IMG/VR virus record: IMGVR_UViG_3300035390_000014
Coordinates: 64,001-128,000 of that record
Origin: a virus
Lineage: Duplodnaviria; Caudoviricetes
DNA: 64,000 nt
Direction: 5' to 3' (one strand)
The notes below the pieces were generated by a model, which did not search any database, had not been told where the DNA came from, and saw nothing but the letters and a program-made list of their open reading frames with translations. Below are positions 4,303-53,490 of the stretch, in pieces. Made by a program: the position numbers and the translations under genes. Within the stretch, counting starts at the first letter, position 1; every line of letters begins with the position of its first letter.

Positions 4303-5292
4303 TTAGCTTAAAATATTTGTACAGCTTATATTAATTGGAGTATCATTAAAATCTTTACCTGTTTTGTTATAATAAACATGTAAGGATTTAATTATGTGTT
4401 TATTATATTTCATAATTTTTTCATAGTAACTTATCGGTATTTCTCTATCTGAAAGAATATGTATTGTAGGTCTAAATATTAATTCATTGAAAATAACGCT
4501 TTTAATAGCTGCTACATATGAAGTTGATAATGCTGCTATATAAGCTCTTACTTTATTTTTTATACCTAATACATCATATATATGTTCCGCATATATATCA
4601 AATATTCCCTCTGCCATTATTATATGATTTGAATCTCTTCTATTTCCAAATAATTTATAATAGTCTAAAAGCTGGGAAGGTTGTAAATCTAATTTATAAT
4701 ATCTAAAATTTGATGTTCCATCTATATTTCTCAATGACACGCATGAATTATTTTCAGTTAAAAATCCAACAAAATTTGTATGCAAATAATCTTTAAATCT
4801 TATAACTTTTTCTGGTAATTGAATATTATTAATTTTTAATAATTCATTTACATCAAATACTAAACCTGGTACTGTTGATAGAGGTATATTAGCAAATTTA
4901 AATCTTTGTTTGATATATAAGGCTTTTAATTTAAAATAATCCTCTCTTAAGTCTGGTAAGGTTATATCTTTTGGTTTATAAATATTTTTTTCAAATTTTA
5001 CTTTTTCTACTTTAAAATGTTTAACTTGCTCCTGATTAACATATTTTATAGAAGTATCATTACCTTCTATTTTTTCTGTTAATTTTCTTATTAAACCACT
5101 TTGATTACACCCACCTCTAAAACAATGAAATATTGGATCATGTAGAGATATCCATAAATGACTTTTACTACTTGACATAGTTTTATCACACCAAGGACAA
5201 GGAACAATAATATTTTTAGGATTCATTTTAACTGGACCTAAATTTTGCTCCAAATAATCTATAAATCCATCATTATATATTCCTACTGTCAT
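4303..5292 (-). CDS. DNA primase (gp61/DnaG-like)
   Basis: CPWCD...HCFRGGC Zn ribbon, TOPRIM EGIFD and SDRE acidic motifs. Confidence 0.8.
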   Translation of the reverse strand: MTVGIYNDGFIDYLEQNLGPVKMNPKNIIVPCPWCDKTMSSSKSHLWISLHDPIFHCFRGGCNQSGLIRKLTEKIEGNDTSIKYVNQEQVKHFKVEKVKFEKNIYKPKDITLPDLREDYFKLKALYIKQRFKFANIPLSTVPGLVFDVNELLKINNIQLPEKVIRFKDYLHTNFVGFLTENNSCVSLRNIDGTSNFRYYKLDLQPSQLLDYYKLFGNRRDSNHIIMAEGIFDIYAEHIYDVLGIKNKVRAYIAALSTSYVAAIKSVIFNELIFRPTIHILSDREIPISYYEKIMKYNKHIIKSLHVYYNKTGKDFNDTPINISCTNILS

Positions 5293-5342
5293 TTAATTAT
5301 CCTTTTTTTAAATGTATAACCATACATTACAAATGAGTGATT

Positions 5343-5528
5343 TCAACCAATACAATCAATTATATATTCAGAAAATGCCTGTCTAACATTGAATTTATTA
5401 TTTGTTCCACAATCAGGACAAATATTCTTAATTAAATGTTCAGTAGTTCCAAGACGAGATCTAGCATAAACTTTATCACATATCTCAGAACATATTGGTT
5501 TAACCAAACATTCTCTACATGGATACAT
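5343..5528 (-). CDS. Small Cys-rich protein
   Basis: CxxC..C...C and CPDC motifs. Confidence 0.45.
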   Translation of the reverse strand: MYPCRECLVKPICSEICDKVYARSRLGTTEHLIKNICPDCGTNNKFNVRQAFSEYIIDCIG

Positions 5529-7362: not shown

Positions 7363-8369
7363 CTAATTACAAATTTTATTTGCTAAATTTCCTGTGGAAC
7401 ATTCTGTTCCGGTTTCATGTCCATATTTGTAGTGACATTTTTCACAACAAGCAATACCAAAATCAGGATCTAAAACAAAACCAGGTTCTAATTTTTGTGG
7501 GCGAGAATGATGTGCATTTGTTGCAGGTTCTCCACAATATTCACATAAATAATTAGCTCGTTTTAATACAGTTGTTCTCCAAGTTTGATATTCTTCATAT
7601 GTATATAATTTATCAATGTTTTTATTAGGATCACTTTTTAAATGAAATAGAGGACATTCTATTTTACATCCTTCTGAACAATATAAATAACACCCACCAT
7701 TCCCTTTTTCAATTTGTCTTATTCTTTCGTAAAATTGAATTCCAGTTGGTGTAAACCAACCATTTTTTTCTTTTGAATTTTGACATAAATGATTTTTACA
7801 ATGAACTTGTATTATCTTTTCATTTTCTTTACCTGGTTTATATCTCATCTTTTCAACTTTAGAAAATGTTGGATATCGTTCTTTAATTTGATTTATTGTT
7901 ATTTTTTGTGATATTCTATTTTTCTCTAAAACTTCTTTAGAATAAATATTAGTCTTTCCCTTATTCCATGGTATATTTCCAATTAAAGATTTAGATATTT
8001 TTTTCTTGTTTTATTTGTATGAGTTTTTTTATAAAAAGGATTTTTATCTCCAACCATTAATCCTTTGTGAGATATACTTAATTTTTTCCTATGTTCTTCG
8101 GAAAATATTTTACCTTTACTAGATTCTGACATCTTTTTTCTAACTTCATAAGAAAGAGTTTTTCCTTTCATTACAGAAGGTCTTCCTTTCCCAGATTCAC
8201 TCATTTTCTTCTTAGTTTCTTTGGAATGTTTATATCCTATAGATCCAGTTGCTTTTATCTTTGAATTTAGCCGACAAACTGGACATTTAGAATAATGAGA
8301 TGAACAACACCACCTACCATTCTTGAATTGATATTTTGCTTCTTTACCACAACCATATTCACATATCAT
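7363..8369 (-). CDS. HNH homing endonuclease split by a one-base frame discontinuity (track ORFs 7983-8369 and 7363-7848)
   Basis: Downstream frame is open from 8010 to 7363; a -1 shift at the A7 run (7998-8004) gives continuous RKKISKSLIGNIPWNKGK...KVEKMRYKP, matching the paralog at 1639-2694; about 335 aa fused. Confidence 0.75.
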
Positions 8370-24271: not shown

Positions 24272-24480
24272 GCAACAACCAATTTTTAAAAGATTACGGG
24301 CAAAGAGTTGAAGATATGAATTATACATTGCAAGAATGTATCATGTCAGGTTTTACTGATGGTAAATTAAATTTAGAAGAAGTTATGGAACTCTTTAGAG
24401 GGACTATTGCTGAGATTAAACAACTACAAGAAAAAGTAAATGCTTTATCAGAAGCTTTGAGGAATAATAATGAAAAATAA
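24268..24480 (+). CDS. Small coiled-coil protein
   Basis: 70-aa coupled ORF. Confidence 0.5.
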   Translation: MSNNQFLKDYGQRVEDMNYTLQECIMSGFTDGKLNLEEVMELFRGTIAEIKQLQEKVNALSEALRNNNEK

Positions 24481-24883
24481 AAGTTTGACATTAAAAGTTA
24501 AATCTGAAGATGTTGAAATTATTAGAGAAGAAGACAGTGTTACAATCCATATAAAAAATGATGTTGCTTTAAATATAATTATGGATGGTGGTGGGATGAT
24601 TCATTCAAAAGATGATTTTTTTATTGCAGCAGAAGGTGAGTTAGGTTTAATGTCCTTTGGCAAACCCTTAACTATTGATTCAGTTGATAGTGTAATCCAT
24701 CAAAATTATAGAGAATCAAAATTGTTAAAAGACTTACCTGAATCAATTGAATTTAGAAAAAGATGTGACGAAGAAAATCAAAAATGTATCACATTTGCAG
24801 TTGATCAAGAAGGATTTAATAGACTATTAAAAGACAGAGTTACTATACTAGAACAACAAATGAGTAAACTTTTAGGAGAATAA
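24470..24883 (+). CDS. Hypothetical protein, possibly baseplate/spike-associated
   Basis: Beta-strand-like pattern directly upstream of the PAAR gene. Confidence 0.4.
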   Translation: MKNKSLTLKVKSEDVEIIREEDSVTIHIKNDVALNIIMDGGGMIHSKDDFFIAAEGELGLMSFGKPLTIDSVDSVIHQNYRESKLLKDLPESIEFRKRCDEENQKCITFAVDQEGFNRLLKDRVTILEQQMSKLLGE

Positions 24884-24887
24884 TATA

Positions 24888-25175
24888 ATGCCAGGAGTAG
24901 CAAGAAAAGATGATGTTTGTACTGGGCATGGGTGTTATCCATCAAGACCAAATACTAGTTGGTCATCTGACACTTTTGTAAATGGGCGAAATGTTCACAG
25001 AAAAGGCGACTCTTGGGCTGCACATTGTTGAGGTATTCCATGCCATGGAGGTTCCCTGGCTAGCGGCTCAAGCACACATTTTACAAATGGTAAACAAACC
25101 GGAAGATGTGGTGATCCTGTTAGTTGTGGTTCCTCCGTTGCCTCATGCTCTGGAAATACAATAGTAGGTGGATAA
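24888..25175 (+). CDS. PAAR / gp5.4-like spike-tip protein with in-frame TGA at codon 48 (candidate selenoprotein)
   Basis: MPGVARKDDVCTGHGCYPSRPNTSWSSDTFVNGRNVHRKGDSWAAHC*GIPCHGGSLASGSSTHFTNGKQTGRCGDPVSCGSSVASCSGNTIVGG; both halves carry PAAR motifs; TAA at 25173-25175 abuts next ATG. Confidence 0.9.
25042..25060 (+). promoter_or_regulatory. SECIS-like stem-loop
   Basis: GCCA-U-GGA[GGU]UCC-C-UGGC; stem starts 11 nt after the UGA, G-initiated loop at +19. Confidence 0.55.
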
Positions 25176-26201
25176 ATGGATATCATATTTAATTGTTTGG
25201 ATAGTGGATTAGGTAATAATGGTGGATCAAGGACAATTGTTCGATCAGCTAACACTTTATATAAAATGGGTCATAATGTTTGTATATTAAATCCAGAACC
25301 AAAACGTGTAAGAATGGGAGAATATATATCTTCATCTTATACATGGGACAAAATAGAAGTTCCAGTTTTACATAATATTAATGATGTTAATGTTAATGAT
25401 GTTATTATAGCGACGGCATTTTCTACTGTTAAATCTACAATGGAAGCTCCAGAAAAATTTGGAAAAAAAGTTCATTGGATAAGAGGTTGGGAAACATGGT
25501 CTCACTCTGAAAATTGGATTAAAGAAAATGTTTTGAATCAACCAACATTAAAAATAGTTAATTCTATTTGTATGAAAGATAAATTAAAAGAACATGGTGT
25601 AGACTCTCATATTATTAGACCTGGTTATGATTTCCATGAATTTTATCCTTTAAACGTAAGACAAAATAATAAAGTATTAACTATTGGTTGTTTATATTCA
25701 AAAGGAACTAAACGAGAATCTAAAAGAGTTGATTGGATTTTTAGAGCTGTTAAAGAAATTAAAAAAAAGATGAAAGTACGTTTAATCATGTATGGTTCAG
25801 AAGGTAAACCATCTGTAAATGATCCATTTGATGTATTTAGACCATCTCCATCCAAACAAGCAAAAAATAATATATATAATCATTGTGATATTTGGTTAGC
25901 TCCTACATGCAATGATTCTTTACATATGCCCCCTGCTGAAGCAATGCAAGCAGAATGTTGTGTAGTTGGTACTGATGCTCCAATGAATGGAATGAAAGAT
26001 TATTTAATTAATGCAGAAACTGGAATTGAATCATTTAATACATATGAATCATTTAGAGATTGTATTATTTATTGTTTATTAGTTGGTGAAGAAACAAGAA
26101 TTAAATTTGGAAAAGCAGGTAGAAAAAAGATATTATCCTTAGGTACACGTGAATATAATATGAACATATTAATAAACTATATAGAGGATAATATGTCATG
26201 A
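25176..26201 (+). CDS. Glycosyltransferase family 4
   Basis: GGSRTIV, DIWLAP...PPAEAMQAECCVVGTD. Confidence 0.88.
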   Translation: MDIIFNCLDSGLGNNGGSRTIVRSANTLYKMGHNVCILNPEPKRVRMGEYISSSYTWDKIEVPVLHNINDVNVNDVIIATAFSTVKSTMEAPEKFGKKVHWIRGWETWSHSENWIKENVLNQPTLKIVNSICMKDKLKEHGVDSHIIRPGYDFHEFYPLNVRQNNKVLTIGCLYSKGTKRESKRVDWIFRAVKEIKKKMKVRLIMYGSEGKPSVNDPFDVFRPSPSKQAKNNIYNHCDIWLAPTCNDSLHMPPAEAMQAECCVVGTDAPMNGMKDYLINAETGIESFNTYESFRDCIIYCLLVGEETRIKFGKAGRKKILSLGTREYNMNILINYIEDNMS

Positions 26202-26910: not shown

Positions 26911-28503
26911 ATGATGGTAAAAAAAATATCTTTTATAAAACTTATTAGATTATGGGGTATTATTTTTATAAGTTCACTTGTTGGTATTATTATTAGTATT
27001 GACATTATTATTACCTATAATGATTTTAATATTCGTATGGATACATTACGTACAAATTATATTAAACAACAAAAAAAAGATGTTAAACGTGAAGTTAATC
27101 GAGTTGTTGAGATGATTAGTTGTGAAAGAATGCAAGATAAAAATGATGAACATACAAAAAGAAGATGGTTAGAAAGAATTAATTATATACGTTTCGGAAA
27201 AAATGATAATGGATATTTATTCGCAGGATCGTGGGATGGAATTAGTCTTGCCCATGGAGATATACCCGAACTAATTGGTAAAGATATTTTAGATTTTACT
27301 GACAGTAAAGGCAATAAAACATCACAACTACTAATAGCTACTTCAAAAATTGAAGGTGGAGGATTTGTTCCTTTTTGGTGGATAAAACCAGATACAGGAA
27401 TAGAAAGTTCTAAGATTACATATGTTGAAGGAATACCAGACTGGGAAATGCTTATTGCTGCAGGAATTTATGATGATGATATAGAGCATGATATAACAAT
27501 TTTACATAATACATTAAATGAACAAATGATATCAAAAATTGGTGTTTTAATTATATTTATTATAATTACATTTTGTGTATTTATATTTCTATTTAATTTT
27601 TTAAGTGGTAAACTAAAAAAAGATTTTAATTTATTTATTTCATTTTTTAAAAATGCAGCTTTATCTGATAAAAAAATTGATAATAAATTTATTAACTATA
27701 TAGAGCTTGAACAAGTATCAGAATATATAAATCAGATGATACAAGATAAATCAGATGTTCAACAAACTATATCAGACGAAAGATTGAAAACTGAAAGACG
27801 TTTAGAACAATCAAGAAAAATGGAATCAATTGGAACATTAACGTCTGGTATTGCTCATGATTTTAATAATATTCTTTTTATAATAAAAGGTAATATTGAA
27901 TTATTGATGATGACTGATAAAAATGAAAAGTTTGATATAATAATAAAAGCTAGTAATCGAGCTATAAAATTAATTGAACAAATTACATCATTTAGTAGAC
28001 ATGATGATGTAGAATTAAAAGATGTTAATATAAAACCAATAATAGTAGAAAGTATTAATTTAAGCAAATCATCAATTTCAGAAAATACAAGCATTATAAG
28101 TGATATAAAAGATGGAAATTATATAGTTAAAACTGATGAAATAAAAATTGGACAAGTGGTTTTGAATTTAATAACAAATGCCTGTCATGCTGTTGAAGAT
28201 ATTGAAGGTAAAATTTTAATTAGTTTGAAAAATATAAATATTCATAATGGTGATTTAATTAAGAAAAATTTACCAAAAGGAGACTACGCTCAATTAAAAA
28301 TTACTGATAATGGGTGTGGGATTGATCCCGAAAATTTAGATAAAATATTTGATCCTTACTTTACTACAAAAGATATATCTAAAGGTACTGGATTAGGATT
28401 ATCTATTGTATATGGAATTATTAAAGAATCTAAAGGTTTTATTAATGTACAAAGTGAATTGAATATTGGAACTACTTTTGATATTTTTATCCCACTTGTT
28501 TAA
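26911..28503 (+). CDS. Membrane sensor histidine kinase with Cache domain
   Basis: Two TM helices around NGYLF...HG..PELIGK...KITYV Cache segment; H-box GIAHDFNN, N-box NLITNACHA, DNGCGI, FDPYFTTK, GTGLGL. Confidence 0.92.
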   Translation: MMVKKISFIKLIRLWGIIFISSLVGIIISIDIIITYNDFNIRMDTLRTNYIKQQKKDVKREVNRVVEMISCERMQDKNDEHTKRRWLERINYIRFGKNDNGYLFAGSWDGISLAHGDIPELIGKDILDFTDSKGNKTSQLLIATSKIEGGGFVPFWWIKPDTGIESSKITYVEGIPDWEMLIAAGIYDDDIEHDITILHNTLNEQMISKIGVLIIFIIITFCVFIFLFNFLSGKLKKDFNLFISFFKNAALSDKKIDNKFINYIELEQVSEYINQMIQDKSDVQQTISDERLKTERRLEQSRKMESIGTLTSGIAHDFNNILFIIKGNIELLMMTDKNEKFDIIIKASNRAIKLIEQITSFSRHDDVELKDVNIKPIIVESINLSKSSISENTSIISDIKDGNYIVKTDEIKIGQVVLNLITNACHAVEDIEGKILISLKNINIHNGDLIKKNLPKGDYAQLKITDNGCGIDPENLDKIFDPYFTTKDISKGTGLGLSIVYGIIKESKGFINVQSELNIGTTFDIFIPLV

Positions 28504-36090: not shown

Positions 36091-37401
36091 GTGGATCATA
36101 TTGATATTGTACGAAGGTTGTGTGACAACAACTGTAGCACCTATTTGGTAGGTGGTGGGATCAGGGATATGTTACTTGGTAACGATCCTGATGATTTTGA
36201 TGTTGTCACAGAAGCAACTCCTGATAAGGTGATGGAGTTGTTCAAAGATTGTAATGTAAAACAGGTTGGAAAATCATTTGGAGTTATTTTAGTTGAAGGT
36301 TATGAAGTTGCAACCTTTAGATATGATAGATATAAAGATTCTAAATGTATTGTTTCATTTGCAGATAATATTCATGAGGATTTAAAGAGAAGAGATTTAA
36401 CAGTTAATGCTATGGCATTTTGTGAATTAACTGGAGAATTGATTGATGATCATGGTGGACGAGATGATCTTGATAGAAGGATTATTAAATTTGTTGATGA
36501 TCCTGATATAAGAATTAAAGAAGATCCTTGTAGGATTCTTAGAGCTTGTAGATTTTTATCTAAAATTGATGGAACATTTGAGTATAATACATTCAAATCA
36601 TTAAAAAGAAATGTATGGAAATATAAAATTGCCCCTGAAAGAATTAGACTTGAAATTTTAAAAGCAATGAAAAATAAGGAAGCTTCTAAATTTTTTAAAG
36701 CTTTAAAATCAATTGGTATGTTGAAACATATTCTACCAAGTCTTGATAAATGTTGGAAACATGAACATGGGATCCATCATAAGGAAGATGTATTTGATCA
36801 CTGTATGTATTGTGGAGATTCAATTTCTTGTGATGACCCAATTCTTAAATTAACTGGCTATCTTCATGATGTTGGGAAACCAATTTCTTTTAAAGATGGA
36901 AAGTTTATTTATCATGAGATAGAAGGTGCTGAGGCATTAGAAAAAGAGTTGAAAGCATTAACATTTACTCTTGATGAAATTAAAAGAATATGTAGTCTGG
37001 TTAGATTACATATGAACTCAATTCAAAAAATGACTCCAAAAGCAATTAGAAAGTTGCTTAGAAAATTTGATGAATATGGGGTTATAATTGATGATTTCAT
37101 GGTATTGAGAAAAGCGGATAGAAGAGCTAACATTGCAAGAGAGGATTTTACACCAGAAGAATGGATTGCAATGGAACAACAACTAAGACAAGAGATTCTT
37201 GAAGATAAACCTTTTAACATTCATAGTCTTATATTTAAAGGTAGAGATATCATTGAAGTATTTGATTTATTACCTGGAGCAAGAATTGGTAAGATTCAAC
37301 ATTTGATGATGGATTATATTGTTGAAGAAGGTCAACAATATAATACTTATGAAGATTTAAAGGAATATGTTATTAAAGTTTTAAAAGAAAAATTGGTTTA
37401 G
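36091..37401 (+). CDS. cca: CCA-adding tRNA nucleotidyltransferase with HD domain
   Basis: VGGGIRD, DFDVVT, DLKRRDLTVNAMA, EDPCRILRACRF, ERIRLE, HDVGK. Confidence 0.93.
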   Translation: MDHIDIVRRLCDNNCSTYLVGGGIRDMLLGNDPDDFDVVTEATPDKVMELFKDCNVKQVGKSFGVILVEGYEVATFRYDRYKDSKCIVSFADNIHEDLKRRDLTVNAMAFCELTGELIDDHGGRDDLDRRIIKFVDDPDIRIKEDPCRILRACRFLSKIDGTFEYNTFKSLKRNVWKYKIAPERIRLEILKAMKNKEASKFFKALKSIGMLKHILPSLDKCWKHEHGIHHKEDVFDHCMYCGDSISCDDPILKLTGYLHDVGKPISFKDGKFIYHEIEGAEALEKELKALTFTLDEIKRICSLVRLHMNSIQKMTPKAIRKLLRKFDEYGVIIDDFMVLRKADRRANIAREDFTPEEWIAMEQQLRQEILEDKPFNIHSLIFKGRDIIEVFDLLPGARIGKIQHLMMDYIVEEGQQYNTYEDLKEYVIKVLKEKLV

Positions 37402-37402
37402 T

Positions 37403-37439
37403 AAAAAAATGTCGTGCTTATATAGGCGACATTTTTTTT
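37403..37439 (+). terminator. Intrinsic terminator
   Basis: AAAAAATGTCG...CGACATTTTTT. Confidence 0.75.
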
Positions 37440-37498
37440 GTCAATTTTTTATACAAATGGAACATAATATAAATGAAATGTATATAGGAGAATTAAAA

Positions 37499-38569
37499 AT
37501 GAGCATCGTAGATAAACTAACCAGTCGAGGTTTAATCACCCCACCCCCACATCTTAAAACTAATATTCACTTTGAAGTTATGATGGGATCAATTGCTTAT
37601 GGTTGTAGTAATGATGCATCTGATTGTGATGTTTATGGTTTTAGTATTCCACCAAAAGATATAATCTTTCCTCATATAAATGGTTACATTATTGGGTTTG
37701 GTAGACAACCTAAAAAATTCGAGCAGTATCAGCAGCACCACATCAAGGATGAAATCCATAACAAAGAATATGATATTACCATTTATAATATCATTAAATA
37801 CTTCCAACTTGTAATGCAAAACAATCCTAATATGATTGATTCTTTATTTGTACCAAGAAGATGTATTTTACATTCAACTCAAGTTGGTGAAAGAGTTAGA
37901 GAAATGAGAAGATTATTTCTAACTAAAAAAGCATGGCATACATTTAAAGGTTATGCTTATTCTCAATTGAATAAATGTAAGAATAAAAGTATTCAACAAT
38001 ATATTGAATTATGTAAAAGAATGGAAATTGATTTTCATATCTCTATGGAAGATTTTGATACTTATAATGAGGAAAATTATGTATCAACAGTCAATAGAGA
38101 ATTATTTAAAGCATTATATTCTAAAGTTCATCAATCAGGTAAAATAACTAAACGATTAGACGTTATTGATAAATTTGGTTATGATGTTAAATTTGCTTAT
38201 CATATTGTAAGACTTTTAAATGAAGTTGAGCAAATTCTGGTTGAACAAGATTTAGACCTAGAACGAAATAGAGAACAATTAAAATCTATTAGACGTGGTG
38301 ATTGGACTCTTCCAGAAATTGAAAATTACTTTGCTGAAAAAGAATTATCATTAGAAAAGTTATATACTTCAAGTACTCTTAGACATTCACCAGATGAAGA
38401 AGGTATTAAAAAACTTCTAATGGAATGTTTAGAGATGCATTATGGTAGTTTAGATGCATGTGTTGTACAACCAGATAAAGCTATTGAGGCTTTAAAATTG
38501 ATTGAAGAAATTTCTGGAGGTATATTAAGAAAGAAAAATGAGTTCCTAATTACAGGAAAGGTTTATTAA
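37499..38569 (+). CDS. Pol-beta superfamily nucleotidyltransferase (RlaP/YcgL-like)
   Basis: MGSIAYG...SDCDVYG, NNPNMIDSLF, KFAYHIVRLL; ATG 37499 has an RBS and is preferred over the track start. Confidence 0.82.
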   Translation: MSIVDKLTSRGLITPPPHLKTNIHFEVMMGSIAYGCSNDASDCDVYGFSIPPKDIIFPHINGYIIGFGRQPKKFEQYQQHHIKDEIHNKEYDITIYNIIKYFQLVMQNNPNMIDSLFVPRRCILHSTQVGERVREMRRLFLTKKAWHTFKGYAYSQLNKCKNKSIQQYIELCKRMEIDFHISMEDFDTYNEENYVSTVNRELFKALYSKVHQSGKITKRLDVIDKFGYDVKFAYHIVRLLNEVEQILVEQDLDLERNREQLKSIRRGDWTLPEIENYFAEKELSLEKLYTSSTLRHSPDEEGIKKLLMECLEMHYGSLDACVVQPDKAIEALKLIEEISGGILRKKNEFLITGKVY

Positions 38570-45074: not shown

Positions 45075-45464
45075 GGGGATGAAATGGTATCGCTATAGGT
45101 AGGAATTTTATACTGCGCTTCGTGAATGATTGAGTCACGTTAAAATTGATCATGTAAATACAACTGCAGACAATTTCGCAGATGATTACGCACTAGCAAT
45201 AGCAGCGTAATTCGTTCTAGTTAGTTTATATCTTCGGATTAATATAGGGCGTCGACTTAGAAGATTAGAATTATATTGGTTGGACATAAGATAATTCCAT
45301 GTGACTTTATAATTTGAAACTACTACAGAAATTTATCCTTCAACAATGTTGTTTTGTCAATTCCACATATAGTGATTTGTTGAAGTATTAAAAATTGACT
45401 ATAAGCGTAGATGTATTCTTGGAATATACTATATACTCGAGTTCGACTCTCGACATCTCCACCA
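45075..45464 (+). ncRNA. ssrA: tmRNA, tag peptide ADNFADDYALAIAA
   Basis: 5' GGGGATG pairs with 3' CATCTCC-ACCA; T-arm CTCGAGTTCGACTCTCGA; tag ORF 45166-45210 after ACAACT. Confidence 0.92.
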
Positions 45465-46616: not shown

Positions 46617-47177
46617 GTGAATATTATGAAAGACATGAATAAGCTAATACAGTTAAGAGAAGCTACACATAAAGATATGATCAAAGGTTTCCAAGAAAGA
46701 GCAAAAGACCTTAGAATGTCTTTTGAAAGACCAAAAAGAGAAAATGGTATGTTATGTGATTTTGGGTGTGGTCAACCAGCTACTTATATGATTCATGGTA
46801 TAAGTTGTTGTAATAAATATGAAAGTCGCTGTCCTGCATATGAAAGATACCAATCAGAAAAAAGACTAGAAATGGTTGGACAAATCCCTCATAGAAAAAT
46901 GAAGGACACGAAATTTAGTTGTTTTTTGAATTACTTTTTCCATGAGGAATGGTATATACATCAGATTATAAACCTCGTAAAATGGGGGTCTAATCGCGTT
47001 ATAAGACAACAGGGGTTTAGGGTATTACCTATAAATCAAGAATTAAAACCAATCAAAACTTGGGACAGAATAACCAGTCCTCACTTCATAATTAATGAAT
47101 CAATGTACATAAGTCAACCAAAAGGTCAATCAATTATAGCAGTACATATTGGAGAATTACCATATGAAACCAATTAG
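46617..47177 (+). CDS. Hypothetical protein carrying the CDFGCG..CC..CP Zn module
   Basis: LCDFGCGQPATYMIHGISCCNKYESRCP. Confidence 0.6.
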   Translation: MNIMKDMNKLIQLREATHKDMIKGFQERAKDLRMSFERPKRENGMLCDFGCGQPATYMIHGISCCNKYESRCPAYERYQSEKRLEMVGQIPHRKMKDTKFSCFLNYFFHEEWYIHQIINLVKWGSNRVIRQQGFRVLPINQELKPIKTWDRITSPHFIINESMYISQPKGQSIIAVHIGELPYETN

Positions 47178-47520
47178 ATGTGTAGTTTGTAGAACTGAAT
47201 TTGATCACGCTGAACTTGATGGGGCACGTGGTTGCCCGGTATGTGGTTATCAAGGACTTACTATGCTAACTAATGGAGATGTAGCTGTAAATATTAATTG
47301 GTTTGAACTTAGGTTGATATGTATGTGGGCTGAATCTTTAGCTTTACAAGTCGGTGATTCCCATAGTCTCAATGCTTTTTATTCAGTAGTTAATGAATTA
47401 AAGAAACAAATACCAGATTCTGGTAAAATAACAATGTTTGATAAAGCACCTGATCTCACTTGTGATTCAGATTATAATATAGATGATTTAGTAGTTCCGG
47501 ATGGGACGATATTCAATTGA
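47149..47520 (+). CDS. Zn-ribbon protein
   Basis: CVVC...CPVCG. Confidence 0.6.
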   Translation: MENYHMKPIRCVVCRTEFDHAELDGARGCPVCGYQGLTMLTNGDVAVNINWFELRLICMWAESLALQVGDSHSLNAFYSVVNELKKQIPDSGKITMFDKAPDLTCDSDYNIDDLVVPDGTIFN

Positions 47521-48905
47521 AGACTAATAATGTTTTAGTGATAGGTGATATAATCCTTGATAAATATATCAAAGGTTCAGTATCCCGCATTTCACCAGAA
47601 GCTCCTGTTCCTATTATTAAAATAGATGATGAACATTACTCATTGGGTGGAGCTGCTAACGTAGCTAATAATTTATCCTCGTTAGGATGCAGTGTTAGTA
47701 TCATTGGTATCATTGGTCTTGATTCCGACGGAAATAAATTAAAACAATTATTTAAAGAAACTAATATTCATTGCTATTTTAATTATAATAAGAATTATAA
47801 AACAACATCTAAGACCAGAATAATTGGTAATAATCAACAGGTAGCAAGACTTGATTATAATGATAATAGTAAACCAGAAGAAATTAGTATTTTTACAATA
47901 GAGCAAACAATTAAAGATGTAATAGATCCATATGATATTGTTGTTATATCTGATTATGATAAAGGAGTTTGTACGAATAGAATATGTCGAACAATAATTC
48001 ATTTATGTAATCAAAAAAATATTCCAGTTATCGTTGATCCAAAGGGAACTGATTGGGATAAATATAGAAAAGCATATATGATAACTCCTAATCTAAAAGA
48101 AACATCTGAGTTAATTGGTAATGAAATTAAAAATACTAATATACAGATTAATGCTAAATGTAGAAATTTAAATGATCAAGTTAGATCTCAATACTTATTA
48201 ATAACAAGATCAGATAAAGGAATGTCTTTAGTTGATGAAGCTGGTATTATTCATATACCATCTAAATCTAAAGAAGTCTTTGATGTTACTGGTGCTGGTG
48301 ATACTGTTATAGCAACTATTGCAGCATTTATTAATAGAATGAAAATAATTGATGTTATTAATTTAGCTAATAAAGCGGCTGGAATAGCAGTATCAAAAAC
48401 AGGAACATCAACAGTAACACAAGATGAATTGAATAATGATCCTATTAGTAATAAGATAATGACTGTAGATTCTTTAATGAAACATGTTAAATTATGGAAA
48501 CAAAAAGAAGAGTCTATCGTATTTACTAATGGTTGTTACGATCTATTTCATAAAGGTCATGCTCATTCAATACATAAAGCATCTGAACTTGGTAATCGCT
48601 TAATAGTTGCTATTAATTCAGATGAATCAGTTCATAGAATTAAAGGTGATAATAGACCATTAAACAATGAATATGATAGAGCATTTGTTATAGCATCTAT
48701 TAATAATGTTGATGCAGTAATTATATTTAATGAGGTTACACCAGATAACATATTACAATTAATCAGACCCAGTGTATTAGTTAAGGGTGGGGATTATATG
48801 CTTCATGAGATTGTAGGAAGAGAATATGCGGATAGAGTTGAAGTTATTAATTATTTACATGGTTATTCAACTACTAAGATGGTTAAAAAAATAGAAGGTA
48901 AATAA
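47517..48905 (+). CDS. hldE: Bifunctional D-glycero-D-manno-heptose kinase / adenylyltransferase
   Basis: GDIILDKY..GSVSRISPEAPVP, DVTGAGDTV, VFTNGCYDLFHKGH, RPLN, LVKGGDY. Confidence 0.95.
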   Translation: MKTNNVLVIGDIILDKYIKGSVSRISPEAPVPIIKIDDEHYSLGGAANVANNLSSLGCSVSIIGIIGLDSDGNKLKQLFKETNIHCYFNYNKNYKTTSKTRIIGNNQQVARLDYNDNSKPEEISIFTIEQTIKDVIDPYDIVVISDYDKGVCTNRICRTIIHLCNQKNIPVIVDPKGTDWDKYRKAYMITPNLKETSELIGNEIKNTNIQINAKCRNLNDQVRSQYLLITRSDKGMSLVDEAGIIHIPSKSKEVFDVTGAGDTVIATIAAFINRMKIIDVINLANKAAGIAVSKTGTSTVTQDELNNDPISNKIMTVDSLMKHVKLWKQKEESIVFTNGCYDLFHKGHAHSIHKASELGNRLIVAINSDESVHRIKGDNRPLNNEYDRAFVIASINNVDAVIIFNEVTPDNILQLIRPSVLVKGGDYMLHEIVGREYADRVEVINYLHGYSTTKMVKKIEGK

Positions 48906-53396: not shown

Positions 53397-53490
53397 GAAC
53401 GAACGAAAAAGGCACGGGATCACGTGGTCCCACGCAAAGTCACAGGTCTTTTATAAAGGATAAAAGATGGCTGGTCTACCGAAAACGTTC
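53397..53490 (+). ncRNA. c-di-GMP-I (GEMM-I) riboswitch, copy 2
   Basis: Same core as copy 1 with different P2/P3 loops; P1 GAACG/CGTTC. Confidence 0.82.

Follow-up and report, generated by a model that had tools for sequence, protein, structure and literature searches.

A candidate selenocysteine codon in the PAAR spike-tip gene of a sediment phage

The gene studied here raises a simple question, namely whether an in-frame UGA in its middle ends the protein or is read and, if it is read, as which amino acid. It lies in a 64,000-nt stretch of phage DNA, the whole of which is called the window below; the source is a giant phage from anoxic sediment. The initial annotation had proposed that the gene encodes the PAAR tip of the phage spike and that its UGA specifies selenocysteine (Sec), inserted by the machinery of the host.

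An intact PAAR frame with a conserved in-frame UGA

Direct reading gives one frame (24888-25175, plus strand) of 47 codons, a TGA (25029-25031), 47 further codons and a TAA (25173-25175) that abuts the next ATG, at 25176; the residues flanking the UGA are H-C-*-G-I-P-C-H. Frame, TGA, abutting ATG and the hairpin described below all lie where the initial annotation had placed them. The features of the gene are:

24874..24878, plus strand: Shine-Dalgarno-like AGGAG, 9 nt before the PAAR ATG (direct reading)
24888..25175, plus strand: PAAR spike-tip gene, 95 residues, with a single in-frame UGA as residue 48 (translation)
25029..25031, plus strand: in-frame UGA for residue 48 (His46 + 2), proposed as the Sec codon (homologue alignment)

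Table-11 gene callers stop at this UGA. Genes in the window are tightly packed under table 11, and TGA is indeed a normal stop elsewhere, ending 22 of the 72 ORFs of at least 100 aa in the 64,000 nt. Next to the PAAR gene in the window lie genes for a nucleotidase, glycosyltransferase and hydrolase and genes of unknown function, and in the relatives compared a conserved 137-aa gene of unknown function always precedes it. Neither a megablast of the PAAR region against GenBank phages nor a tblastn of a large neighbouring ORF against phages gave a match, and a look for RNA-seq runs containing the region returned none.

The product is recognized as a PAAR protein across the UGA. The Pfam PAAR_motif family (PF05488) matches residues 24-86 with 38.7 bits against a cut-off of 27, so that the motif does extend to both sides of the TGA, as had been claimed, and PHROG 281 matches with E=1e-30. 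Solved PAAR proteins align over residues 1-89, and an AlphaFold model of the full-length product (pLDDT 96.9, pTM 0.86) forms a complete PAAR cone that superposes on 9VYI, 9F4B, 4KU0 and 4JIV with a TM of 0.90 and an rmsd of 1.2-1.6 Å. Judging from the model, both halves are needed for the fold, which half a PAAR cone could not adopt.

The TGA is also not peculiar to one assembly. In a second study, of another sediment sample, a 168-nt contig spans positions 24978-25145 with zero differences, a comparison made between contigs and not raw reads, and sequencing or assembly error was on this basis rejected as the source of the TGA. The half of the gene downstream of the TGA is selected like the upstream half, with mean pS/pN values of 0.69/0.31 and 0.71/0.24, respectively (55 pairs). 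Two relatives (L086 and L094) have 295 in-frame codons beyond the TGA, the last 248 of which show a dN/dS of ~0.29 between them, and in TGA-keeping relatives the neighbouring genes are syntenic, at 36-77% identity. The earlier statement that neither half has decayed is borne out, no other lesion being present, and a pseudogene reading was rejected in view of the purifying selection downstream and of more than 20 diverged genes with the TGA and no other lesion. The data show that the PAAR UGA is genuine, that it is conserved under selection and that it is read through.

The initial annotation had suggested aligning homologues to look for Cys/TGA alternation and a conserved hairpin, and had regarded a TGA found in no other homologue as fatal to its reading. 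Both were found. The column of residue 48 holds Cys in 86 of 119 full-length homologues, and TGA in at least 20 distinct relatives, among them L006/L067, L038/L039, L072, L082, L083, L086, L089, L090, L093, L094, L096, L097, L099, L100, L101, L130 and L131. Three database proteins show a 'W' at this position: in P0004 and P0114 it is a TGA translated with table 4, and P0007 comes with no DNA, so that the call was checked in the first two only; both of these being TGA, a true TGG was found in neither. In the tree, the TGA forms cluster with Cys forms as their nearest neighbours, and 2-6 switches are needed. The TGA forms were found partly by DNA patterns requiring CAT at His53, so the codon of His53 is not independent evidence; likewise, Trp43 is TGG in all TGA forms, and in part of them this was forced by the DNA pattern. 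The H-C-C motif that the initial annotation had given for related gp5.4-like proteins holds in the close subfamily, given the prevalence of Cys, but not in V. cholerae VCA0105, which has H-D-K. Homologues in cultured phages amount to 98 records, 38 of them from Campylobacter phages; the two records read (CP81 and Rhizobium RHph_TM21B) have Cys together with Cys16, and no TGA.

All 133 homologues keep H14, H46, H53 and C80, which line up with conserved His and Cys residues in VCA0105. The metal of the PAAR tip has been reported to be held by three His and one Cys (PMC10715212, PMC12407873), and by alignment these four residues are the predicted ligands here. Residue 48 is placed in the apical loop between His46 and His53, and its presence as Cys or Sec is coupled to that of Cys16, two residues after His14, which occurs in 100 of the 103 proteins with Cys/Sec48 and in 0 of the 30 without. 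Of the earlier suggestion that Sec lies at or beside the metal site, the second option fits, since residue 48 is close to His46 but does not belong to the canonical set of four ligands, appearing instead as the partner of Cys16.

A hairpin conserved in the UGA forms

A hairpin follows the UGA after a gap of 10 nt. There are 18 nt between the UGA and the GGU loop, which, counted from the A of the UGA, begins with its G at +19:

25042..25060, plus strand: SECIS-like hairpin GCCA-U-GGA[GGU]UCC-C-UGGC, apical loop 25050-25052 (RNAalifold, covariation)

RNAalifold predicts this hairpin on 11 TGA forms with 77 of 77 cells paired. The closing pair varies (U-A in five forms, A-U in three, C-G in three), each change being a synonymous one in a Gly codon matched by a change among Ser, Thr and Ala. 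Four of the seven pairs are invariant in the alignment, three of them forced by conserved Cys/His/Leu/Ala codons and the fourth needing G as the third base of a Leu codon. The complete hairpin is found in 10 of the 11 TGA forms and in none of 10 Cys forms with the same amino-acid motif (Fisher p = 3e-5, in a test that ignores shared ancestry). It is thus conserved by compensatory change and specific to the TGA forms. L100, L101, L072, L130 and L131 have a hairpin of a second class, its G-first triloop lying at +33.

The folded region is not more stable than chance (MFE -11.2 kcal/mol against a mean of -13.4 for shuffled sequences, z = +0.8), and support for the hairpin therefore rests on covariation and is comparative, not thermodynamic. 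Alone, the hairpin has seven pairs (3 bp, a 1x1 mismatch and 4 bp) and -7.4 kcal/mol; with a lower stem that includes the UGA it reaches -10.4 to -11.2 kcal/mol. The bSECIS model (PMC13188914) describes a loop of 3-9 nt with G in the first two loop positions, the pattern N1-G-[G/U]-N-N2 with N1 and N2 paired, a spacing of 16-37 nt, and an upper stem of 4-16 bp with an MFE of at most -7.5 kcal/mol. Scored against this model, as had been proposed, the hairpin agrees in its loop (GGU, 3 nt, flanked by an A...U pair), in the position of the G and in the 18-nt spacing; for the stem of 3 bp, mismatch and 4 bp, the MFE falls on either side of the limit, at -7.4 kcal/mol alone and at -10.4 to -11.2 kcal/mol with the lower stem. 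Rfam SECIS families gave no match at the gathering score or at E up to 10 in 121 nt at the PAAR site, and none at the zinc-ribbon site described below. Covariance models find little information in short SECIS hairpins of bacteria.

A further comparison is with E. coli fdhF, the prototype of bacterial Sec-UGA genes. In both, the UGA (codon 140 in fdhF) stands at a Cys-equivalent position and the signal lies inside the ORF directly 3' of it. The initial annotation had likened the two in geometry, and the offsets, read for fdhF from NC_000913.3, are in fact equal: with the U of UGA as 0, in both hairpins the U at +17 is unpaired, positions +18 to +20 form the 3-bp helix and GGU begins at +21. They differ in the loop, which is a GGU triloop here (GGA in many relatives) and a GGUC tetraloop in fdhF, and in the unpaired U, which here is part of a 1x1 internal loop, opposite C or U, and forms a bulge in fdhF. 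Moreover, the PAAR gene is viral and its product structural, not an oxidoreductase, and the SECIS role of its hairpin is a prediction from sequence.

Decoding of the UGA

In our reading, UGA-48 is probably decoded as selenocysteine, and the gene yields a PAAR spike-tip protein of full length. A ribosome at the UGA would meet a bacterial-type SECIS 10 nt downstream (the unpaired U, 3-bp helix and G-first GGU triloop), which would recruit host SelB carrying Sec-tRNA(Sec). The proposal of Sec insertion through a SECIS-like hairpin beside the PAAR metal site passed all comparative tests run and can be called partly supported; from these comparisons we infer the reading of the hairpin by SelB, the insertion of selenium and the chemistry suggested below for Sec48.

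TGA-PAAR genes occur in three bacterial genomes, each of which has SelB above the cut-off, tRNA-Sec above the gathering score and a SelD with its own TGA, and the bona fide SECIS hairpins of these SelD genes have G-first triloops (GUG, GUG and GUU) at +23 to +26. One of the carriers is a Desulfobacter MAG (L101), in whose prophage the TGA-PAAR gene directly follows gpV, between gpD and gp25/J/I, in a P2-like baseplate module. The phage record itself (202.7 kb, ~65% complete) contains no tRNA-Sec, selB or selD, so in the proposed mechanism the host would have to supply the Sec machinery; that the phage uses host SelB and tRNA-Sec we infer from the absence of both in a record that is 65% complete. 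A search for this host through the Cache-domain kinase and the HldE-like gene pointed to no host, the named relatives being of mixed phyla and at most ~45% identical.

Two further genes of the same phage, one for a zinc ribbon and one for a homing-endonuclease zinc module, have a UGA where homologues align a Cys, and after it a hairpin with a GGU loop. The features of the first are:

5292..5528, minus strand: zinc-ribbon-like candidate selenoprotein, 79 residues, CPDC ... C-I-G-U (translation, homologues)
5343..5345, minus strand: in-frame UGA of the zinc-ribbon gene, at the second Cys position of the second C-x-x-C knuckle (homologue column)
5311..5328, minus strand: hairpin AAUGUAU[GGUU]AUACAUU, 14 nt after the zinc-ribbon UGA (comparison with relatives)

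The stop codon of this gene overlaps the ATG of the downstream gene (a 329-aa ORF, 4303-5292). When viral contigs were searched by peptide pattern, no zinc-ribbon homologue turned up; the protein database gave two. P0125 (70% identity) has TGA in the same column, read as W via table 4, and the same hairpin, whereas P0126 (47% identity) has TGT (Cys) and no hairpin; the hairpin is identical in the TGA-bearing L123 and absent in the Cys-bearing L124. A crude genome-wide scan for an in-frame TGA with a G-loop hairpin returned mostly out-of-frame noise, and its 35-codon filter excluded the endonuclease site.

The alternative that survives best, which we nevertheless hold to be unlikely, is that the UGA is read through without selenium by a near-cognate or suppressor tRNA (for Trp, Cys, Arg or Gly), the hairpin merely slowing termination or the ribosome. 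What the data show directly is read-through itself, the hairpin is short and unremarkable in its thermodynamics, and the phage does tamper with decoding, its tRNAs including tRNA-Trp(CCA), tRNA-Cys(GCA) and an amber suppressor. The amber suppressor was considered as the UGA decoder and rejected, because its anticodon CUA reads UAG and not UGA; a tRNA with a UCA anticodon is absent from the 202.7-kb record, which speaks against the alternative as a whole. So does the residue-48 column, which alternates with Cys and never with a true TGG in the W calls that could be checked, and the coupling to Cys16, which a residue as bulky as Trp or Arg is unlikely to meet. The hairpin, for its part, matches the fdhF SECIS offsets base for base, the same loop motif recurs after the two other UGA-at-Cys sites of the genome, and Sec machinery is found in every bacterial carrier.

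For some anaerobes, tRNAs for 'recoding with Cys' have been reported. It is conceivable, and in our view very improbable, that SelB and a SECIS are used in the PAAR gene but that cysteine is inserted, by a Cys-charged tRNA-Sec-like tRNA. Cys alternation, a SECIS-like hairpin and SelB in the carriers would fit such a system equally well, and one genome (G074) has three matches above the tRNA-Sec gathering score. The system is rare, however, with Cys as the product there would be nothing to maintain TGA over TGT or TGC for such a time in more than 20 lineages, and the same bacteria make a SelD with its own Sec-UGA.

We give as little weight to the UGA being a genuine stop, with the locus a pseudogene, the source of a 47-residue fragment or an assembly error. 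Termination will certainly compete at any Sec-UGA, so that some truncated product is to be expected, and table-11 callers do stop there; against this stand the identical TGA of the second study, the more than 20 diverged genes with the same TGA and no other lesion, the similar pN/pS on its two sides, the 295 in-frame codons after the TGA in L086 and L094, and a fold that half a cone cannot form. Lastly, a phage or host code with TGA as sense (table 4 or 25) has next to no probability and was rejected for the phage: some pipelines did obtain intact proteins by translating relatives with table 4, but TGA is still a normal stop in the tightly packed window (22 of the 72 long ORFs), the zinc-ribbon relative translated in this way reads on beyond its real stop codon and enters the gene that follows, every TGA form has TGG for Trp43 (partly forced, as noted), and carriers with SelB, tRNA-Sec and a Sec-UGA SelD fit site-specific recoding.

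If the UGA is read as Sec, Sec48 and Cys16 would most likely be joined by a selenosulfide bridge or share in an additional Se/S contact to the metal. In either case, two of the cone's three hairpin tips would be clamped together beside the 3-His/1-Cys metal site. Sec insertion is typically of low efficiency. PAAR has been described as a monomer that tips a trimeric spike (PMC12407873); only about one copy per virion would then be needed, and a low efficiency of Sec insertion would be affordable. The further claim that virion assembly is selenium-dependent appears doubtful, as T4 gp5.4 was reported to be dispensable for particle assembly, being needed for fitness and for infecting some hosts (PMC12407873).

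Known systems and significance

T4 gp5.4 (4KU0), P1 UpfC (9VYI), V. cholerae VCA0105 (4JIV) and E. coli c1882 (4JIW) share the PF05488 fold with the protein described here (TM 0.86-0.90). The present subfamily has the extra coupled pair of Cys16 and Cys/Sec48, whereas the four solved proteins align without it, and only here is residue 48 encoded by UGA.

A parallel among cellular proteins is with the 'CU' selenoproteins SaoL, SaoB and MbdU, non-enzymatic metal-binding proteins of anaerobes (bioRxiv 10.1101/2022.07.06.499078; PMC13188914). Like the PAAR protein as read here, they have a Cys-Sec dipeptide within a site that is presumed to bind metal or is rich in Cys, are typically truncated at the UGA in database entries and are found in selenoprotein-rich anaerobes; unlike it, they serve cellular transport or organometallic functions, and no virion protein is among them. 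The family table of PMC13188914 does not list PAAR (PF05488).

In phages that reassign TAG or TGA (PMC10607447), a stop codon is likewise read as sense in phage genes, but genome-wide, whereas here TGA is still a stop and only single Cys-aligned sites with a local hairpin appear to be recoded. The prokaryotic selenoproteome review of 2026 and the BSepDB paper do not mention phages, viruses or PAAR, and the literature searched yielded no description of a selenium-containing protein of a virus particle. To our knowledge, nearly all selenocysteine described so far sits at catalytic sites, in redox enzymes of cells. Selenoproteins of eukaryotic viruses, such as the poxvirus glutathione peroxidase homologues, resemble the present case in that the virus borrows the Sec machinery of the host for a gene of its own; they differ in having a 3'-UTR SECIS and in being captured host redox enzymes, not components of the particle. 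Redefinition of UGA as Sec has been noted in a few viruses (PMC8310308).

On a wider view, for and against which we see the balance as even, a whole guild of phages and prophages, living on anaerobic sediment bacteria rich in selenoproteins, would put Sec into metal- or Cys-rich sites of their own proteins. This phage would provide three cases, the membrane-piercing tip with its Cys16-Sec48 selenosulfide or metal clamp, the zinc ribbon (C-x-x-U) and the homing-endonuclease zinc module; selenium would then be structural, hardening the tip, and not catalytic, and infectivity would depend on host SelB and on selenium. Genes of this kind are split or mistranslated by gene callers, and both truncation at the TGA and its translation as W were observed here. 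If the reading is true, a Sec-UGA in a phage genome implies a Sec-using host, and the Cys16-Sec48 pair of the tip would offer a compact natural system for comparing selenium with sulfur, as a metal or disulfide clamp in a reducing, sulfidic environment. Selenium biology would extend to structural proteins and to phages, and the infectivity of phages in anoxic sediments would be tied to the availability of selenium and to the SelB of their hosts.

The PAAR gene and its in-frame TGA

The phage record, which comes from a sediment metagenome, is 202.7 kb long, has an estimated completeness of 65% and a G+C content of 29%, and contributes its bases 64001-128000 to the window. The features of the tip gene are the following:

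24888-25175 (+): PAAR gene, 47 codons, TGA, 47 codons and TAA in one frame
25029-25031 (+): in-frame TGA of the PAAR gene, read from the sequence
25042-25060 (+): hairpin GCCA-U-GGA[GGU]UCC-C-UGGC, with comparative support

The initial annotation described a single frame broken by the TGA alone, with PAAR motifs on both sides, no decay in either half and TGA as a normal stop elsewhere, and all of these points were borne out. The ATG is preceded by AGGAG 9 nt upstream, and the TAA runs straight into the ATG of the following gene. The read-through product of 95 residues matches Pfam PAAR_motif above the cut-off in an alignment that bridges the TGA, as well as PHROG 281 (E=1e-30), and its residues 1-89 align to solved PAAR tips. 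Its AlphaFold model, obtained with 63 homologues as input, has a pLDDT of 96.9 and a TM of 0.90 against phage P1 UpfC, T4 gp5.4 and Vibrio cholerae VCA0105; neither half of the gene could form the PAAR cone by itself. TGA terminates 22 of the 72 long ORFs of the window, where table 11 gives a tightly packed gene layout. Downstream of the TGA the 11 full-length TGA forms show pS 0.69 and pN 0.31, compared with 0.71 and 0.24 upstream, with synonymous sites near saturation; because non-synonymous differences are as low downstream as upstream, selection acts on the part beyond the TGA.

The base call was checked at contig level and stands: the TGA is present, at depth 8.6, in the Logan assembly of what is probably the source run, and a 168-nt contig of separate origin, in both sample and study, is identical over 24978-25145. 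The corresponding column is Cys in 86 of 119 full-length database homologues (motif H-C-C-x-x-P-C-H), and TGA at this position recurs in many relatives. A tblastn search of viral contigs found it in L006 and in L038/L039, two loci identical to each other; these three loci share 63-64% identity with the query. Pattern scans at the DNA level, run on viral, metagenome and genome collections, yielded in addition L072, L082, L083, L086, L089, L090, L093, L094, L096, L097, L099, L100 and L101. Three database proteins have 'W' at this column; DNA was read for two of them (all but P0007), and both have TGA translated with table 4, with no true TGG seen in these two.

In the AT-rich relatives the neighbouring genes are syntenic at 36-77% identity, including the upstream 137-aa gene and a glycosyltransferase, and the TGA has therefore outlasted a long divergence. 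In the tree, the TGA forms group together with Cys forms as nearest neighbours and 2-6 Cys/TGA switches are needed, which is the pattern of a selenoprotein family. In our judgement, these comparisons establish read-through of the conserved UGA.

Directly upstream of the PAAR gene lies a gene (24470-24883, +) whose 137-aa product matches no family; it occupies the same place in ten AT-rich contigs with a TGA-containing PAAR gene (36-56% identity) and could encode a protein that works with the tip, for example as a spike piece or chaperone. In two relatives (L086:3145-4173, +, and L094:3305-4333, +) the TGA-containing PAAR is fused to a C-terminal extension of 248 residues, giving 295 in-frame codons past the TGA, and dN/dS between the two is ~0.29 across these final 248 codons. 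The extension has a weak, sub-threshold match to Peptidase_M15_3, and the product would be a tip with a putative cell-wall hydrolase located wholly downstream of the UGA.

The hairpin downstream of the UGA

RNAalifold predicts exactly the same helix for the 11 TGA forms, with 77 of 77 cells paired. The loop-closing pair covaries, being U-A in five forms, A-U in three and C-G in three, the silent third position of a Gly codon changing in step with the first position of a codon for Ser, Thr or Ala. Among sequences sharing the amino-acid motif C-H-G-G-x-L-A, all seven pairs are kept in 10 of 11 TGA forms versus none of 10 Cys forms (Fisher 3e-5, ignoring ancestry), and the Leu codon takes the form YUG in all 11 of the former and in 3 of 10 of the latter. 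The hairpin shows no excess stability over shuffled sequence (z = +0.8), and an Rfam search of the region matched no family. The distant TGA forms L100, L101, L072, L130 and L131 have a second hairpin class, with triloops termed G-first (GGG, GGU and AGU) at about +33.

In E. coli fdhF (NC_000913.3), with the U of UGA counted as 0, a U is bulged out at +17 and a 3-bp helix occupies +18 to +20, followed by the loop GGUC at +21; the phage PAAR has an unpaired U and a helix at the same offsets and the loop GGU at +21, so that the likeness to fdhF noted at the outset extends to individual positions. The bSECIS model requires a loop of 3-9 nt, a spacing of 16-37 nt, a G among the two leading loop bases with the pattern N1-G-[G/U]-N-N2, an upper stem of at least 4 bp and an energy <= -7.5 kcal/mol (PMC13188914). 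Scoring of this type, suggested in the initial annotation, favours the PAAR hairpin for loop length, G position and pattern, and spacing (18 nt), and is borderline for upper stem and energy.

Further UGA codons and the presumed origin of the Sec machinery

Two other genes of the phage carry a UGA at a Cys position:

5292-5528 (-): zinc-ribbon-like gene, CPDC...C-I-G-[UGA], TGA as the last Cys of the second C-x-x-C
G000:C1:151840-152694 (+), phage record outside the window: endonuclease-like gene, TGA in place of the final Cys of C-C-x6-C
8100-8369 (-): paralogue of the endonuclease-like gene, matching the Pfam NUMOD3 motif
near 46755, 51978 and 60032 (+), in the window: the other paralogues

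The zinc-ribbon gene and the one after it (329-aa ORF, 4303-5292) overlap, stop codon with ATG, and a 7-bp hairpin with the loop GGUU lies 14 nt past the UGA; a relative at 70% identity keeps both TGA and hairpin, and one at 47% has TGT, no hairpin and the same end point. The five endonuclease-like paralogues have a common N-terminal C-x-x-C ... C-C-x6-C module, whose last Cys is Cys in four and TGA in the fifth, where an 8-bp hairpin with the loop AGGUC begins 10 nt after the UGA. The occurrence in one genome of three unrelated genes, each with a UGA at a column that is otherwise Cys and with GGU in an apical loop at +21 to +24, points to a single trans-acting reader for the three sites.

The phage record encodes 26 tRNAs, one tmRNA and one amber-suppressor tRNA; tRNA-Sec, a UCA anticodon, SelB and SelD are absent from this 65% complete record, and likewise from two complete large relatives, and the machinery must therefore come from a host. 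Among 401 sampled genomes of the phylum of a Desulfobacter MAG, close PAAR matches were found in three only, each with one TGA. In the Desulfobacter MAG the gene lies in a P2-like tail module (tape measure, gpD, gpV, PAAR, gp25, J, I), alongside SelB (347 bits) and tRNA-Sec (73.6 bits) in the genome; in the other two the site reads H-A-U and H-T-U, and both also carry SelB and tRNA-Sec. All three have SelD with its own Sec-UGA (L136, L138, L135 and L137, in genomes G005, G358 and G074, with two copies in G005). Predicted folds after the SelD UGA have G-first triloops (GUG, GUG and GUU) at +23 to +26 in three of the four genes, the fold of the fourth, in G358, being weak and unclear. The main rival explanation is that the UGA is read through without selenium; we consider Sec insertion via host SelB the best explanation and a quite probable one. 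A full-text literature search turned up no paper describing a selenoprotein of the PAAR family or of phage particles, in agreement with the initial annotation, and neither a 2026 review (PMC13188914) nor the BSepDB paper mentions phage, virus or PF05488.

A cluster of 14 tRNA genes and a full tmRNA spans 42367-62783, with endonuclease-like genes in between.

45075-45464: tmRNA, tag ADNFADDYALAIAA

The amber suppressor, with anticodon CUA (G000:C1:147668-147743, +, outside the window), is labelled tRNA-Pyl by ARAGORN, and despite its presence 9 of the window's 72 long ORFs still end in TAG. By the tRNA region, at 36091-38569 (+), an HD-domain gene resembling CCA-adding/poly(A) polymerases precedes one for an RlaP-like nucleotidyltransferase, and the two seem to be a pair for RNA repair or tRNA maintenance. 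The window also holds a c-di-GMP-I riboswitch aptamer (53401-53483, +; 39.1 bits, Rfam gathering score 35), a sensor histidine kinase with Cache, HisKA and HATPase domains (26911-28503, +), near which no response regulator was seen, and an HldE-like bifunctional heptose-7-phosphate kinase and heptose-1-phosphate adenylyltransferase (47517-48905, +). The closest relatives of the latter are metagenome proteins (50-77% identity; named bacteria ~45% at most), and its presence suggests that the envelope glycans of the host contain heptose.

Residue 48 in the tip

H14, H46, H53 and C80 are invariant in the PAAR homologues and align with the 3-His/1-Cys metal site reported in VCA0105, c1882 and T4 gp5.4 (PMC10715212, PMC12407873). 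Residue 48 lies in the apical loop two positions after His46, just as Cys16 lies two after His14. Cys16 is present in 100 of 103 proteins with Cys or Sec at position 48 and in none of 30 without, and the two residues therefore form a coupled pair, of which Campylobacter CP81 and Rhizobium RHph_TM21B, the cultured phages read, have the Cys-Cys version. In the TGA forms, Cys16 and Sec48 may form a selenosulfide bridge or jointly contact a metal, which would clamp two of the hairpin tips of the cone.

That virion assembly depends on selenium, as first proposed, is doubtful, since T4 gp5.4 is not required for assembly but matters for fitness and for the infection of certain hosts (PMC12407873). 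PAAR is a monomeric tip (PMC12407873), so about one copy per virion would probably be enough, and inefficient Sec insertion would then be tolerable.
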